From the NCBI GenBank assembly GCA_964016885.1, contig OZ024746.1, positions 89,714,001 through 89,778,000 on the forward strand: 64,000 nt of DNA, in the 5' to 3' direction. The stretch comes from Eledone cirrhosa (Eukaryota). A program made the position numbers and the translations under genes. The notes under the pieces were generated by a model, which saw nothing but the letters and a program-made list of their open reading frames with translations, made no database searches and was not told where the DNA came from. This document shows, piece by piece, positions 846-54,872 of this stretch (position 1 is the stretch's first letter; every line of letters starts with the position of its first letter).

Positions 846-2495
846 CTATTGCCATTTTTGCCATACTCTTGTTTATACAACACAATTGCCTCTTTATTGA
901 TTTCATCTTTCCTAGTCCTTCCAACATAACCTCAAATAATATTTGAAATGACGTACAGTGATTAGTTGATATAGCACATCTGCTCTGCATAAATACAATC
1001 AAGCTGAACAATAAAGAACAAATGGTAACGGATCCAATCACAATAATAGGCATCCAAGATGAGTGATGACCTAGTGTTAAATAAGAATAACATCAACAAT
1101 TGTCATTACTTTATTCAGACAGCAGAAACGCTGAAGAGCATAAAAAGATTTGATAGTTTTACCAAGAATATGACACAATGAGTGTTAAGATCTGGTGTGG
1201 TCGAAGGTATTATAACAGCACCCTATCGCCTACGGAAGAATATAAATCAATTTCATTTATAAATCATCTTCCATTATCAAAATGATACTGCAATGCCAGG
1301 CATCTATTGTTTCAAATGTAAATATTTTTCTAAGAGATAATATATAATTGCTTCTATAGTTTCGAGATATAACGATTGCATACAAGCATCATTTTCCATC
1401 AATGTTTACATATTGGTTATAATCTATTGACTGCAACTTACTGCAAAGAAAACTGCAAATATTCATAATCTCAGAGAAATTGTGTTCATTACGACCCGAA
1501 AGTAATTTGTGTAAATGTCTGGGTATATATTGAAACAACTAAACATTATGTTGACATTTAAAAAAAATATTGTTCGTGGGTAATTTTATCATAAGAATTG
1601 GATGTAGAAATCTCTGTCTTTCATACTACCGGCAATGTTTTCGAAATACATAGTGACACGACATTTAACCATTCCTTTTGATAGCACGACATTCATTCAG
1701 AGAGATGTTATGCATATTCCCGTACTGTATATATTCCGCATCCAGGCTGGTGAAACATTGGAATCCACTCTGAATAGCGTCAGTAATTCCAAATATATTC
1801 TATGCTCAGACCGATCTATTCAATGTTAATTTGCATCTCGCTCACCAACGCCCGCTGATCGCTTCCGCTGCTTGATTCGCTTCAATTCCATCTTTTCCAT
1901 TCTTATTTATTTGTCTCATTCAATTTTCTTTTTATTTCCATTCAATGTTGTTGTTTTTAACATGCCTGTGTATAGCAATGGCATTGGAAGACATAGACAG
2001 TATATATAACATCTAATTATATGTGTCTTATCTGACACCCTGTTCGTGTGTGTATAAAATTGTACACATTCAAGGATATCAATATTATACCGTGCGGAAT
2101 GCGTAATAATTTGCCTTCAGGTTGAATAGAGAAATTTTTGTACGTAGAACAAAATTAATTAGATAGATTCGAACATATTCTGTGGTGGCAATGGATTGAA
2201 ACCGTTGATGCAGAACGGTGTATTAACAAAAGTGTAAATTAATCAGCATTAGGCAGATTGTTAACACGGCGCCATTTTGAGGGAAGAAAAACCTCTTATT
2301 TTATTTATAATTCCAGTATACAAGCGTCGTTCAGAATTTGGTATCGTTAATGGTAATTGACGTCTTTCGTTCATTTTCCTCCGTAATATATGGAACACTC
2401 ATATTCAGGATTACAATTCTCTTATCTTCTGTAATTAACGCATATTATGCCCGCACGTAGAGATGTATGAATGTACACACACACATGCACACACG

Positions 2496-2583
<88 letters not shown>

Positions 2584-3294
2584 TTTAGTACCGCATTAAC
2601 GAAGCTTTAAGTTGCGGCCAAGTAAACGAATGCAAATTCGGTATGTAGCTTTAACACTCGATAGGGAATAGCACGCCAGAGTAATAACAATACGTTTAGA
2701 CAGATTTGCAAATTAAATATAGCGATCGGCTGGCCGCATTGCCATAGCAAGGAAAATGGTTAGACTCAGGAAAAGATTTTAGACTGACCTGGACCAAGCG
2801 CAGAGACCGAATGCAATATATAATGCATATCGTATGCACACGATATACATCACATACAACACACAACATCCACGCTAGGTTTCTGTAAATCTGAGATCGA
2901 CTAATTCCGCTTGCAGGGTTATTGGTCTTTGACGACAGAACAAAGGATTTACTTCTTCAACAAGTCTTGCGTTCTTTAGCCTCTGCGGGTGTGTTCTAGT
3001 AGTAAATTTCGCTATTGACACGTGGTTTTCTAGCGGTGAATTCGAAACTTAAGACAAAGGAATGAAATTCCCTTAGACAAACCGAATTAAGCACTCAACC
3101 AGAAGTTATCAAACAAACATAAACAATTAATCAATAGAATTGTCTAATTAAATTAATCAGTTAATCGTTAATTATAGGAGTTAAAATACAAATTTAAGTA
3201 CAGCAGTAACATTACAGAACGGAGTGAAAGACTCACTATAATCTCTATAATTTAATGAGGCGAAGAGTAGATTCCAGACTCTTTGTAAATCATC

Positions 3295-3370
<76 letters not shown>

Positions 3371-3421
3371 TATATGATTTTGAACGTACATGTATATATG
3401 TGTAATTTTTTATATTCATAT

Positions 3422-3453
<32 letters not shown>

Positions 3454-3483
3454 TCATACACACACAGAGAGACACACACACGT

Positions 3484-3534
<51 letters not shown>

Positions 3535-3657
3535 GGAGGTGAGTTTCATTGTAGTACAATAAAGCAATGCAGATATCGGATAAGTAGCAGTCTACAGTTT
3601 GTAGGACTGGAGTATAAATAATATATAAGATCAAAAGATGGTTAAAAGAGTTCCATG

Positions 3658-3728
3658 TATTTTATTATGCGCATTTCAAAAACAAATATCATCATGCGAT
3701 GACATTTGCGTTTTCGTCAGATAAAATA
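3658..3728 (-). ncRNA. Type-I minimal hammerhead ribozyme (mirror copy)
   Basis: Reverse complement of the 3937-4007 motif with CTGACGA and GAAA cores intact. Confidence 0.8.
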
Positions 3729-3936
3729 GGGAGACATGATATGAAGGTGAACAAACACTTGTGAATAGTGTAGTTTTAAATCAACATAACAAAAGTAGTT
3801 TTAGATTGATGTGTGATATTGGGAAAAACTTGACGAGGGGGGGGGGGTTCACACGTCAATCTAAAACTACTTTTCTTATGTTGATTTAAAACTGCACTAT
3901 TCACAACTGTTTTTTAACCTTCATATCATGTCTCCC

Positions 3937-4007
3937 TATTTTATCTGACGAAAACGCAAATGTCATCGCATGATGGTATTTGCTTTTGAAATGCGCATAA
4001 TAAAATA
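3937..4007 (+). ncRNA. Type-I minimal hammerhead ribozyme
   Basis: TATTTTAT-CTGACGA-[AAACGCAAATGTCATC gcat GATGGTATTTGCTTTT]-GAAA-T GCGC A-TA-ATAAAATA: 8-bp stem I, long stem II, palindromic stem III, AUA cleavage triplet. Confidence 0.85.
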
Positions 4008-4039
4008 CATGGAACTCTTTTAACCATCTTTTGATCTTA

Positions 4040-4100
<61 letters not shown>

Positions 4101-4118
4101 TGTGTGTGTATGTACATG

Positions 4119-4150
<32 letters not shown>

Positions 4151-4464
4151 CACATATATGTATGTAGTCTCATACATGCACACATACATGCACATATATA
4201 GTTACGTGTATAAATATTATAACAGTACAATATTTATGCATACATACGCATATATGCATTTATATGAATGGCAAACCCTTTTCTTCATCCGTTAAACCTC
4301 AACTTCCTCTTAACTTCAAGTTTTCGTAATGAAGTATTAACACCCAATACTTTCCTTTTCCATTTTCAAAAAAGCATGAAATTAATATACTTTGTGTAAC
4401 GGTATATATGTGTTCTTTCTACTGTATTCTGGTACTAAGCATTCATAGATGCATATATACATAC

Positions 4465-4770
4465 ATGATGGCTGCCCCCTCTTTATCGAGTATGTCCATT
4501 GCACGATATACCATTATTAATAATTATTAATTAATTGTTTGTGCAATGCCTGTGAGTGAAGACATTTTTTAAAGTGAGGAAAGACTGTGCACTGAGCCAA
4601 TCCCACTCTCTGAGGCACAGTAGCTATAACCCGAAACTACTGAGCCGCAGGTTTTATATCGGAGTTATCCCAGTTTCCTGTGTTGCCTTCTCCCAGAAAA
4701 ATGCCGTGACAAATTCTCGGGGTCCTTCACTCCCAGTGGTTTAACGGCGCGATCGGGTCTCCAGCCCAAC
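4465..4770 (-). mobile_element. Dispersed repeat, probably RTE-type LINE 5' region
   Basis: Shares blocks with 40090-40502 (ATGGCTGCC, GCAATGCCTGTG, GCCAATCCCACTCTCT, TTATATCGGAGTT, CCTTCTCC); both follow (CATA)n. Confidence 0.5.
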
Positions 4771-5100
4771 TATTTCAATGTCCCCGCGCATATACATATA
4801 CATGCACCCATGCATACACACATATAATCATACACACACATTTACATGTGTATATACATATTTACACACTTTTGGATGGCCGTTGACTGTTATGAGTTCT
4901 TCTCCTCTTTGTCAGGTATTGTTTTTTGTCCTGTAGGGTGTCCAAAATCACCCTCTTCACCAAGTAAACTTGGTGGGTTGCCGGTTCACTCTTGAGTGCT
5001 ACTGGTAACATGTAATCCAGTAAAAACCTATCGCATGTTCGGGTCGTCGGCGACATACATACATAAAGATGTATGTACATGCACATGTCATTGCTATGAA

Positions 5101-5292
5101 TAATTGTTTCTACTTTTGGCACAAGGCCAGCAATTATCCCAGTGCATTAATGGTGCTTTATTTTTTCGACCTCGTGAGGATGAAAGGCAAAGCTAACCTC
5201 GGCGACATTTGGACTCAGAACGTAAATGGTAATAACTCTATGCTGCAAAGCATGGTGACTGACGCTCCTCCGATACTCCCCAAACCACCACC
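5101..5292 (-). mobile_element. SINE family A
   Basis: Reverse-complement match to the family A consensus; in tandem with the next copy. Confidence 0.85.
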
Positions 5293-5304
5293 CTGGGCTG
5301 TAAA

Positions 5305-5493
5305 TAATTATTTCTACTTTTGGCACAAGGCCAGCAATTATTCCAATGGATTACTGGTACTTTATTTTATCGACTCCGTAAGGATTAAAGGCAAAGTTAA
5401 CCTCGGCGTGATTTGAACTCAGACAATAAAGGGCCGTAACTCTATGCTGGAAAGTATGGCGTCCGATATTCTACCGATACTGCCAATCCACCG
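5305..5493 (-). mobile_element. SINE family A
   Basis: Near full length; TSD GTAAATAATTATT at about 5300 and 5493. Confidence 0.9.
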
Positions 5494-6344
5494 TAAATAA
5501 TTATTACCAAATCATTACCTTCTTGGGCACAAGCATGACCTTTCCTGAGCTGATGGTACTTCTTCCATCATAACATGTTGGCTTCTGGTCAGCAATAATG
5601 ACTGAATCTATGTAGTAACTACTTACACATTCCTATAAAGTTCCTAACGTCTTATGATAACTTCAATGTCAATCTCTTCGCCCAAAGTCATTAGATTGGT
5701 TGACATTTAGAAGGGTGTTAAATTTCGTTGAAGTGTCTTATTCGTGATCTCAAATAATTTGATGGTATTAAGTAGAGTGCTCTAAACTACGAAAGTGGAC
5801 GATCTAGTTATACACATGTAACTACGTATATACAGGTTGGGAACAGAGACTACGCCGATGTGTATATGATTATACACATTTTTAATATATAGACATGTTG
5901 ACCTGCTACATATGCAAAATAACGATTTTCAGACATAGGTAGGTTTAAATCAGAAGGTGTATATATCATATAAATGATCAGAAACAGACATGCCTCTGTT
6001 GCGTTTATATACTCATTTATTAATAGTAACTTTCTGGAATGGACGTACTAATTTGCATATAATTAGCTCTCGTGTTAGTAATTAATTAAGTTATATATTA
6101 AGAAGTGCGATATGCCATGGAAGTGTACAATACATTAATATATGTATATATACAGGGTAGGGAACCGAGACTGAGCTGTTGTGCATATAAATATACACAT
6201 ATTTAAAATATAGACATGTAGACATGCAGGACTTATGAACTTCTCTGTATTTCTGGAAAGTGTTACTATTTATTGCTATTTGATTCTTCACTTTTGAGCA
6301 ATTAATAGACATTCCTGACGCCATTACAGTTTAAAAAAAAACGC

Positions 6345-16339: not shown

Positions 16340-17159
<820 letters not shown>

Positions 17160-27310: not shown

Positions 27311-27394
27311 GAATGTGTGGGTGTAAGTGTGTGTGTCTGTGTGTATGTGCCTGTTATAAACCTAACCTTTATATAGATACATATATATATATAT

Positions 27395-27575
27395 ATAATA
27401 TAAGATCAAAAGATGGTTAAAAAAGTTCCATGTATTTTATTTTATAAAATACATGGAAGTCTTTTAACCATCTTTTGATCTTATATTATTTATACTCCAG
27501 TCCTATAAACTGTTGAGTGCTACTTATCCGATATTTGCATTGCTTTATTGTGCTACAATAAAACTCACCTCCTAC

Positions 27576-27578
<3 letters not shown>
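27395..27578 (+). mobile_element. Short fold-back cassette, family H1
   Basis: About 45-bp arms meeting at 27441-27443; tail matches the reverse complement of 3531-3620; (TA)n flanks. Confidence 0.85.
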
Positions 27579-27627
<49 letters not shown>

Positions 27628-27631
<4 letters not shown>

Positions 27632-27834
27632 AACCAGTAAGACCCCGACAGCTGAGCTCAAGCCGTTTCGACGGCTAATTCTGGACTAACTTTTTTTAGT
27701 CCAGAATTAGCCGTCGAAACGGCTTGAGCTCAGCTGTCGGGGTCTTACTGGTTCCTATTACCCACTCTACTACCTCAAGCATTGAGTACTTTGGTGCGTT
27801 ATGGTCCACCTGGTTCCTTACCACATTTCCTCCG

Positions 27835-27836
<2 letters not shown>
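27628..27836 (+). mobile_element. Fold-back cassette family H3
   Basis: Perfect 62-bp inverted arms 27628-27689 and 27696-27757; tail with TTGAGTACT; (TA)n flanks. Confidence 0.85.
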
Positions 27837-37224: not shown

Positions 37225-37413
37225 CGGTGAATTGGCAGTATCGGTAGAGCGTCAGACACCATGCTTTACAGCATAGAGCTATGGCCCTTTACGTTCTGAG
37301 TTCAAATCCCGCCGACGTTAACTTTGCCTTTCATCCTTACGGGGTCGATAAAATAAAGTACCATTAATGCTCTGGGATAATTGCTGGCCTTGTGCCAAAA
37401 GTAGAAACAATTA
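37225..37413 (+). mobile_element. SINE family A
   Basis: Full length with A box TGGCAGTATCGG and B box GAGTTCAAATCCC. Confidence 0.92.
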
Positions 37414-37446
37414 TATAGTGCGTTGATTGGTGTGATACTCACATAA

Positions 37447-37632
37447 TTAATTGTTTCTACTTTTGGCACAAGGCCAGCAATTAAACAGTGGATTACTGGT
37501 ACTTTATTTTATCGACGCCATAAGGATGAAAGGCAAAGTTAACATCGGCGGGATTAGAAGTCAGACCATAAAGGGCCGTAACTCTTTGTTGCAAAGCATA
37601 GCGACAGACCCTCTACCGATACTGCCAATCCA
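37447..37632 (-). mobile_element. SINE family A
   Basis: Near full length; TSD GATACTCA.ATAATTAAT. Confidence 0.9.
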
Positions 37633-48739: not shown

Positions 48740-48815
<76 letters not shown>

Positions 48816-48854
48816 GATATTAACAAATGGAAACTATATTTATAAAACCATATT

Positions 48855-48919
48855 TATTTCATTATACATATTTCAAGGATACCCAGTTAAATTATGGTAT
48901 ACCTTCATCAGACAAAATA
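48855..48919 (-). ncRNA. Type-I hammerhead ribozyme (mirror copy)
   Basis: Reverse complement of 49060-49124 with cores intact. Confidence 0.72.
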
Positions 48920-49059
48920 CAATATATACCAGTTTTATAGATAAACATTAACGTGCCCTTTCAAAATGCGATCGTTACTTTTGGAAGACATCAGGATAAA
49001 GGAACGGTCGCATTTTGAAAGGGTACGTCAATGTTTATCTATAAAACTGGTATATATTG

Positions 49060-49124
49060 TATTTTGTCTGATGAAGGCATACCATAATTTGACTCAGTAT
49101 CCTTGAAATATGTATAATGAAATA
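49060..49124 (+). ncRNA. Type-I hammerhead ribozyme
   Basis: TATTTTGT-CTGATGA-AGGCATAC...GTATCCTT-GAAA-T ATGT A-TA-ATGAAATA; 8-bp stem I with two G-U pairs. Confidence 0.75.
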
Positions 49125-49251
49125 AATATGGTTTTATAAATATAGTTTCCATTTGTTAATATCGTATATCTACTCCATATAGTTGTTGAGTGCTTTATAT
49201 CAATTATAAAAATATTTACTTGTTGTATCCCAACAATTTAAATAGAACTTT

Positions 49252-49311
<60 letters not shown>

Positions 49312-49461
49312 TATTGAAGTTTCCGTTGAAAAAGTCAGAGGAATGAAGAGTGCTCTATGTAAGTTACAGAGCTGAATATTTAATGTATATTAAACAATAC
49401 AATATAACTACCTCATTACCAGGGGTTTCTCGAATAAAACGAATACAAGAAACGTCCGCAT

Positions 49462-49545
49462 AACATGTCCATTACGAGGTGACGATCCGCTAAGGTGAAA
49501 CAATTGTTCTCGGTATGGTGAACTAACTGTTGTGTAACCACTTCT
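49462..49545 (+). ncRNA. Hammerhead motif, family H4 (core C->G variant, tail-less)
   Basis: CGAG-gTGACGA-TCC gctaa GGT-GAAA-C AATT G-TT-CTCG. Confidence 0.65.
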
Positions 49546-49572
49546 ATATATATATCTATATATCTATATCTA

Positions 49573-50626
<1,054 letters not shown>

Positions 50627-50627
50627 A

Positions 50628-50926
50628 ATGGAAGTGGTTACACAACAGTTAGTTCACCAAACCGAGAACAATTGTTTCTCCTTAGCGGATCCTCAGCTCG
50701 TAATGGAAAGGGTTATACGGAACAGGCAGGACAACCGTACCCTTTTTTTCGCTCCTTTCGAAGCGGACCTTCTTGACCGTACCATGTCCATTATAAGCTG
50801 AGGATCCGCTATGGTGAAGCAACTGTTCTCGGTATGATAAACTAACTGCTGTGTATCCACTTCTACCTAACTCGACCCATGGACTGAATGCTCTACCACC
50901 ACGGATATTACCTTCCAGTGTTCTAC

Positions 50927-54545: not shown

Positions 54546-54580
<35 letters not shown>

Positions 54581-54585
<5 letters not shown>

Positions 54586-54872
54586 TTGTAAACAAATATT
54601 CCGTATTAATCCGTAGTGTCTAGCAACCACCGTTGCTCATTTGTTCAACACTGACAAGGGAACGCTGTACTCAACGTATACCTTTCTGCCAGATACTTGA
54701 ACGTTCAACTATCTGGCAGGAAGGTATACGTTGAGTACAGCGCTCCTTTGTCTGTCTTGAACAAATGAGGAACGGTGGTTGCTAGACACTACGGCTTAAT
54801 ACGGGATGTTTGTTTACAAACACACGGAGATAACAGCCGTACTAAGAGTGGGAAATGATTTTTTTCCGTTTA
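54581..54872 (+). repeat. Spacer-less fold-back palindrome with short tail between microsatellites
   Basis: About 120-bp arms centred on TTGAAC|GTTCAA (54702/54703); tail 54826-54872. Confidence 0.85.

Follow-up and report, generated by a model that had tools for sequence, protein, structure and literature searches.

The Hydra clade of Penelope-like elements (PLEs) is characterized, in the accessible sections of PMC8557442, by a DKT motif, a CxCX5C linker, CxxC and CxH motifs around a conserved E and N, a C-terminal GIY-YIG-type domain, a hammerhead in the pLTR, insertion into (TA)n, and an inverted, 5'-truncated pLTR together with a tail; all of these features recur in the element described here. 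The same source calls the role of hammerheads in endonuclease-bearing Penelope-like elements unclear, and the available part of PMC4209133 reports poor cleavage of minimal hammerheads in vitro and, in 2014, called in vivo evidence absent.

Two described systems bear on how such RNAs are copied. In vitro, the protein of the green anole element Poseidon (Frangieh et al. 2024, PMC11167929) nicks both strands of the target, which are extended from two start sites that flank the tail, and it uses mainly uncut RNA; its own hammerhead, located near the pLTR-ORF junction, cleaves with the protein present. Our element appears to resemble Poseidon in the two start sites, the use of both strands, the mainly uncut template and the approximate place of the hammerhead, but its ribozyme lies entirely upstream of the ORF, and its genomic junctions, which mark a capped 5' end, suggest that cut templates are copied in a minority of cases, whereas the accessible text on the anole element reports that RNA reads at the cut site were not found. 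In R2, the cut made by an HDV-like ribozyme frees the element RNA from an rRNA co-transcript, its position tracks the type of 5' junction, and the cut site, as here, leaves a mark on the genomic 5' junctions (Eickbush et al. 2013, PMC3774820, in the part available). In our element, by contrast, the ribozyme is of a different kind, the mark involves roughly 1% of arms (a rough estimate), and the likely promoter start dominates.

Two further systems are similar in structure. In the inverted pLTRs of Adineta vaga Penelope elements, as here, the inverted junction is a head-to-head palindrome of which one arm bears a tail, and self-priming on an antisense template was proposed for them (Arkhipova et al. 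2013, PMC3846280, accessible sections); in our family, a cap-like G and inverted arms that outrun the tail arm point instead to sense RNA that was primed twice. Non-LTR retrozymes (Cervera and de la Pena, as summarized in the available text of bioRxiv 10.64898/2026.07.22.740005) are likewise short, non-coding and Penelope-derived with a type I hammerhead, but their units, each with its own ribozyme, are repeated head-to-tail in tandem, whereas the short copy studied here is head-to-head and keeps solely the 3' strand of stem I. A retrozyme was accordingly rejected as the identity of this copy, which lacks the hammerhead core and the head-to-tail units with complete hammerheads.

The window, a stretch of 64,000 nucleotides from Eledone cirrhosa, contains only two copies of the family, a short one and a long one, which belong to different subfamilies. 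Positions are numbered from the predicted hammerhead cut, +1 being the first base 3' of it (27444 in the short copy, 4000 in the long copy) and -1 the preceding base. The features of the two copies are as follows.

27390..27440, minus strand: inverted arm, pLTR +1 to about +51; its outer end coincides with the second, fixed start point of the family
27441..27443, no strand: junction TTT (AAA on the cDNA strand of the tail arm), likely an untemplated addition or TTTTA slippage
27444..27494, plus strand: paired part of the tail-bearing arm, +1 to +51, from alignment to the long copy
27495..27578, plus strand: tail, +52 to about +135; its end is the putative main priming point
27579..27630, no strand: (TA)n target tract, from reading of the sequence; a shorter TA tract lies at about 27380-27394
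3531..4054, no strand: long palindromic copy of the other subfamily, with arms reaching about 150-165 nt upstream of the cut and spanning the whole ribozyme
3937..4007, plus strand: type I minimal hammerhead, predicted cut between 3999 and 4000
3658..3728, minus strand: second predicted hammerhead, in the tail-bearing arm of the long copy, from pattern and folding

The short copy (27390-27578) lies inside a (TA)n tract and is an end fragment, in head-to-head arrangement, of a Hydra-clade Penelope-like retrotransposon. Both of its arms end at +1, the first base past the predicted cut, and are separated by TTT: the letters run ...CCATGTATTTTAT up to 27440, TTT at 27441-27443, and ATAAAATACATGG from 27444. 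The first-pass annotation had described a short palindrome turning at the predicted cut, and a tail-bearing arm that begins with the first base of the predicted 3' cleavage product. Both observations are borne out: aligned to the tail-bearing arm of the long copy, 27444-27576 starts at reference position 166 (= +1) with 92.6% identity over 135 nt, and 27444..27494 opens with the 3' strand of hammerhead stem I. That annotation also gave the two copies the same tail and outer arm boundary; they are indeed of one family, but the limits need correction. The inverted arm, which aligns at 27441-27388 to the arm of the long copy, extends to about 27390 (+51), a limit blurred by the TA tract, and the long palindrome extends to about 4054. 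The two arms of the short copy are mismatched at 3/51 positions, which suggests that the insertion is real and has aged, and that it did not arise as a fold-back artefact of a read.

The junction itself allows more than one reading, as the first T of TTT could be templated (-1), or the copy could have been a perfect +1 palindrome with a later TTTTA duplication; a junction of the TTT type was seen once in a second family (C3:35440234). Taken singly, the short copy could be due to chance, whereas its genome-wide class is not. A deletion between two copies of stem I was also considered as its origin and rejected, since it predicts a ribozyme core kept on one side, as is present at C2:165170538, and the junction here differs. 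In the TA tracts flanking the short copy, no target duplication is readable; at three other loci (L183, L182 and L187), similar interrupted TA tracts flank the insertion on both sides and are possibly target duplications of about 20-30 nt. Adjoining the short copy in the same TA tract, 27627-27835 is a near-perfect palindrome with arms of about 60 nt and a one-sided tail of about 75 nt, likely from a third Penelope-like family.

Each arm of the long copy carries a complete type I minimal hammerhead as predicted from its sequence, consisting of an 8-bp stem I (TATTTTAT/ATAAAATA), CTGACGA, a 12-bp stem II (predicted at -12.5 kcal/mol by folding), GAAA, TGCGCA and TA. It thus has the CUGANGA and GAAA core, an NUH cut triplet, stems I and II, and a palindromic stem III, whose self-complementary ATGCGCAT is predicted to pair solely as a dimer. 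An Rfam scan of the window (E<=1) returned 146 matches, none to a hammerhead family and the hits being microsatellite-driven miRNA only, so that the motif call rests on pattern and folding rather than on a covariance-model hit; the long stem II and minimal stem III may lie outside the Rfam models. Across 163 arms that span the ribozyme, subfamily-level changes are confined to five sites in stem II, at all of which pairing is kept, to loop II, to N7 and the unpaired base that follows the core, and to sequence beyond the motif; none fall in the rest of the core or in stems I and III.

The parent element was read from longer copies. Beyond the tail, tandem copies (L007 and L025, in both of which YRDD was read) run on into an ORF, and in L108 the reverse transcriptase is followed by the endonuclease in ORF pieces broken by frameshifts and stops. 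The repeat unit of L108 is 3.67 kb, with tails at 2074 and 5743 flanking the ORF and inverted arms upstream. Within this locus, 1016-5833 is near full-length, comprising two inverted arms, one of 990 nt and the other short, a 5' pLTR reduced to +19, the ORF pieces, a pyrimidine-rich 3' region of about 1 kb and the 3' pLTR. The parent element thus has the hallmarks of an endonuclease-bearing (EN+) Penelope-like element, with a single ORF for reverse transcriptase and GIY-YIG endonuclease, a pLTR-ORF-pLTR partial tandem, an inverted 5' pLTR and a tail on one end. Three homologues were found, of which P0001 shares 42% identity with the RT-side piece and 36% with the EN piece, and matches Atlas clusters with GIY-YIG (26-50% of members) and RVT_1; searches of Pfam, with six ORF pieces and the three homologues, and of PDB sequences matched nothing relevant.

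The motifs SDKTNN, CNCPVRSKC, CNLCLAE and NRR..CLH, all in L108, supply the Hydra-clade set (DKT, CxCX5C linker, CxxC-E, N-CxH), which is accompanied by a C-terminal EN, (TA)n targets and no CCHH. On these motifs, the element is assigned to the Hydra clade as a new member. Compared with the clade as described in the accessible sections of PMC8557442, the decayed copies have RWI or GWI in place of RWK (RWK is present in the homologues P0001-P0003), the unit is 3.67 kb rather than 'generally <3 kb', and the tail is about 84 nt rather than the 30-40 bp usually quoted. The Naiad clade, considered for its (TA)n preference, was rejected, as the EN piece is C-terminal (N-terminal in Naiad) and a hammerhead is present, whereas Naiad elements lack a canonical one. 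A short repeat ending in ...GCCTTGTGCC(T/A)AAAGTAGAAACA occurs just 5' of or within several copies (L185, L080, L132, L149 and L152), often at about +42, and may be a second mobile element that targets this TA-rich spot.

Arm ends, defined as the furthest 5' element position assignable to an arm, were surveyed across the 3.0-Gb Eledone cirrhosa assembly, with tallies from search listings counted by eye. The exact 26-nt tail motif occurs 695 times in the genome, and 95 of 100 listed matches gave an unbiased sample of 94 tail arms after one duplicate was dropped. L125 and L126, which lie 1.5 Mb apart with an identical junction, are likely a segmental duplicate and count as one copy. Adjacent inverted arms accompany 40 of the 94, a further 13 inverted matches having been left out as non-adjacent or misassigned. 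The outer ends of the family are fixed at two sites, whereas the inner ends form a dominant class at -124, with an extra G, and a minor class at +1. The tails stop between about +133 and +135, and inverted arms begin at +49 to +51 in 35/40 adjacent cases. Ends at -121 to -125 account for 16/94 tail arms and 22/40 inverted arms, that is, for 38/134 arm ends in all (28%). Only one of the 134 arm ends, that of the inverted arm L086, falls within 3 bases of the cut, and none of the 94 tail arms does so; L106, flagged as a cut-site tail arm, reads to +11. The majority of arms pass through the uncut ribozyme. Thus, the hammerhead does not define the usual template end, and the proposal of the first-pass annotation that it does so is not supported.

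Palindromes with spacers of up to 22 nt show the same dominance genome-wide, with 197 around -124, 47 around the cut and 5 in a control window around -76 to -86 that includes a 6-nt palindrome in one subfamily; as the searches used different anchors, these counts are only roughly comparable. Among the 50 palindromes listed at -124, at least 8 have an untemplated G immediately before ATATG, and at 6 others the reading is ambiguous. In 16 non-overlapping arms that start at -124, the preceding base is G in 8, a templated C in 3, T in 4 and A in 1, an excess of extra G (8/16) with p about 0.002. Reverse transcriptases copy the cap as an extra G, and -124 is likely the capped transcription start, readable from genomic junctions alone. 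Examples of this end, with a TCA-type initiator, are L087, L103, L158, L178, L202 and L213. For Penelope and Chlamys-3, a start site within the pLTR is known from the part of PMC8557442 available.

In 20/40 cases, the inverted arm outreaches the tail arm in the 5' direction by more than 10 nt, and the reverse holds in 10/40. A second priming event is therefore needed, and the earlier account of reverse transcription 'followed by inversion' is too simple. For the same reason, fold-back of a tail-primed cDNA was rejected as the general source of inverted arms, although it is possible for the short copy alone.

A smaller excess of ends is found at +1. The complete genome-wide list of palindromes with a turn near the cut has 47 entries. 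Thirteen of these are perfect, with the AT at +1/+2 as their centre, as against a total of 4 at five comparable two-base centres (2 at +7/8, 1 at +6/7, 0 at +2/3, 1 at -2/-1 and 0 at -3/-2; binomial p = 9e-8), and in seven others both arms lie within 3 bases of +1. About nine in ten of the perfect +1 palindromes exceed the background. If the palindromes are instead read as fold-backs of one cDNA with added A's, +1 is still ahead by 13 against 3 and 3 (p = 8e-5). The mapping of apexes proposed at the outset, therefore, gave a non-uniform distribution with a peak of symmetric palindromes at the cut, although the excess is small over all arms.

Four causes of the +1 excess were weighed, namely cleavage, which is the most likely, stalling at the ribozyme fold, sequence bias and amplification. 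The last would mean that one or a few +1-apex palindromes were transcribed and re-copied, inflating the count. The full subfamily-A haplotype is common to 7/13 of the +1 palindromes, and 135 nt offer little phylogenetic resolution; the p value rises to 6e-4 with these seven copies collapsed, and to 0.03 if only four lineages are counted. However, the flanks of the +1 palindromes differ, at least five haplotypes are represented, the subfamily-A marker is equally common among +1 palindromes (8/13) and those with other apexes (6/13; Fisher p = 0.70), and the short form lacks the inferred start site. Together with the variety of mixed junctions described next, these observations make re-copying very improbable.

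Mixed junctions, which join a cut-region arm to a start-site arm, number 54 in the complete list (53 distinct). Their cut-region ends comprise 14 distinct cases at +1 (15 rows), with 2 at +2, 6 at +3, 2 at +4, 4 at +5, 8 at +6, 0 at +7, 3 at +8 and 4 at +9 on the plus side, and 2 at -1, 0 at -2, 3 at -3, 1 at -9 and 4 at -11 on the minus side. Thus, 28 ends fall at +1 to +5 and 5 at -1 to -5 (p = 3e-5); +1 exceeds -3 (p = 0.006), and the difference between +1 and +6 is not significant (p = 0.14). The +1 junctions have seven or more different junction sequences, which argues against re-copying. Among the fetched loci (14 at +1 and one at -1), the cut-site arm bears the tail in 14/15, as judged by eye; the polarity is the same in 5/5 control loci at +6 and -3, so that it is a general property and not specific to +1. 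At L010:1490-1510, the tail arm begins at +1, and the inverted remnant is merely 6-8 nt, followed by unrelated DNA.

The position of the +1 ends might alternatively be a chance product of sequence, with AT-rich microhomology, or added A's folding on a T run, setting the junction and the ribozyme uninvolved. Longer microhomologies do produce their own apex peaks. In a filtered survey of breaks, the peak lies at +10, a four-base microhomology (17/67), with 3/67 at +1; its filter excludes perfect +1 palindromes and most mixed +1/-124 joints, and this survey is therefore superseded by the unfiltered designs. Among 50 palindromes listed of 92 matches, at least 13 have apexes at TGCGCA and at least about 20 at a TTTT/AAAA pairing. 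Microhomology, which the first-pass annotation had named as the explanation that would undo its reading, thus accounts for peaks elsewhere, but centres of equal two-base homology hold only 0-2 copies each, and the mixed-junction ends fall from 28 to 5 across the cut. Furthermore, the fold-back geometry is tightest at +1, making this position the least favourable for fold-back. Even with the weak arm-level excess and the non-significant palindromes of the second family set out below, we regard sequence-driven chance as improbable.

The main rival to cleavage is stalling of the reverse transcriptase where an uncut RNA forms the three-way junction of the ribozyme (for instance, at an 8-bp ATGCGCAT dimer duplex), with the ends trimmed and joined at the nearest AT. 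The stem III duplex, predicted at -10.5 kcal/mol, would start 2 nt from the cut. The palindromes with a TTTT/AAAA pairing have an arm end near the base of stem II, and structure may shape such ends, but the microhomology also explains them. Among the 47 palindromes near the cut, a G before +1 is found solely in L199 and L200; this rarity is expected if the +1 ends are uncapped, and a cap G would likewise be absent after a stall. However, stalling predicts ends at -1, and a blunt -1/-1 join was seen once as against 13 joins at +1. We therefore rate stalling as unlikely, though less so than the chance explanation.

Over all arms, the +1 excess is only 1.1-2-fold. Three matched searches for arms leaving the element at +1, +6 and -3, sites that all end in TAT, listed 100 matches each of 199, 146 and 253, respectively, and substitutions, small indels and internal deletions were discarded from the counts. 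True breaks per 100 matches listed were 34-38 at +1, 26-29 at +6 and 12-14 at -3, which scale to 68-76, 38-42 and 30-35 in the genome. Within the genomic range common to the three lists, there were 16-19, 8-11 and 12-14 ends (by eye), giving a ratio for +1 of 1.1-1.9 (p 0.03-0.43). The +1 share of arms is roughly 1%, about 70 of the several thousand implied by the substitution rows, which is a rough inference.

A second palindrome-plus-tail family in the window (48807-49260) has its own predicted type I hammerhead, with G-U pairs in stem I and a predicted cut between 49116 and 49117, and 89 short-spacer palindromes lie near this cut genome-wide. Among 50 of these 89 loci listed, perfect palindromes number 4-5 at +1, 3 at -2, 2 each at -4, +6 and +8, and 3 in stem III (p 0.21-0.35 for +1), and arm ends number 22 at +1, 18 at +6 and 7 at -3 (p 0.03-0.14). 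The second family thus weakly replicates the +1 excess.

Taken together, these observations are consistent with a model in which the element protein would nick both strands of the (TA)n target, and two cDNAs would be primed, one at the tail end (+135) and one at an internal site (+51). Both would extend toward the 5' end of the RNA, after which their 3' ends would be linked by added A's or by a few bases that they share. On uncut and presumably capped RNA, which would be the common case, the cDNAs would stop at -124; on the rare RNA that had been cut, they would stop at +1. In the short copy, both arms would have ended at +1, most simply on a self-cleaved RNA, and the three bases between them would be an addition or a product of slippage. 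We moderately favour this origin, in which reverse transcription ran off a self-cut RNA, for the short copy. Self-cleavage of the family's hammerhead is what we infer from the genomic junctions, and the first-pass proposal of reverse transcription of a self-cleaved RNA is partly supported by the small +1 excess, but would apply to a small minority of templates.

More broadly, PLE insertions may be a readable fossil record of RNA templates, in which copying reaches either a capped start at -124 or, at +1, an uncapped end made by the hammerhead, and in which the inverted pLTR derives from a second priming on sense RNA that runs off the cap and is in some insertions joined to a tail arm whose synthesis ran to the end of a cut ribozyme; we hold this broader reading to be evenly balanced between right and wrong. 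If true, it would be evidence, from the genome, of cleavage by a metazoan PLE hammerhead within the transposing particle, and the hammerhead would be a rare abort switch rather than the maker of the template end. In a literature search that lacked most subscription journals, we found neither a cap-derived G in PLE copies nor a peak of junctions at the hammerhead cut of a PLE described before. Junction mapping is a way to address the role of the hammerhead from genomes alone. Read in this way, the record suggests that cleavage probably occurs but rarely shapes insertions, that the template is mostly capped and uncut, and that inverted pLTRs fit two primings on sense RNA; it also yields exact coordinates (-124, +1, +51 and +135).

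The output of a generic repeat finder for the window is dominated by (TA)n. Further long inverted repeats are present in the window at 16437-16759, 37228-37632, 54580-54825 and 49455-50721; they are probably more head-to-head retroelement ends.
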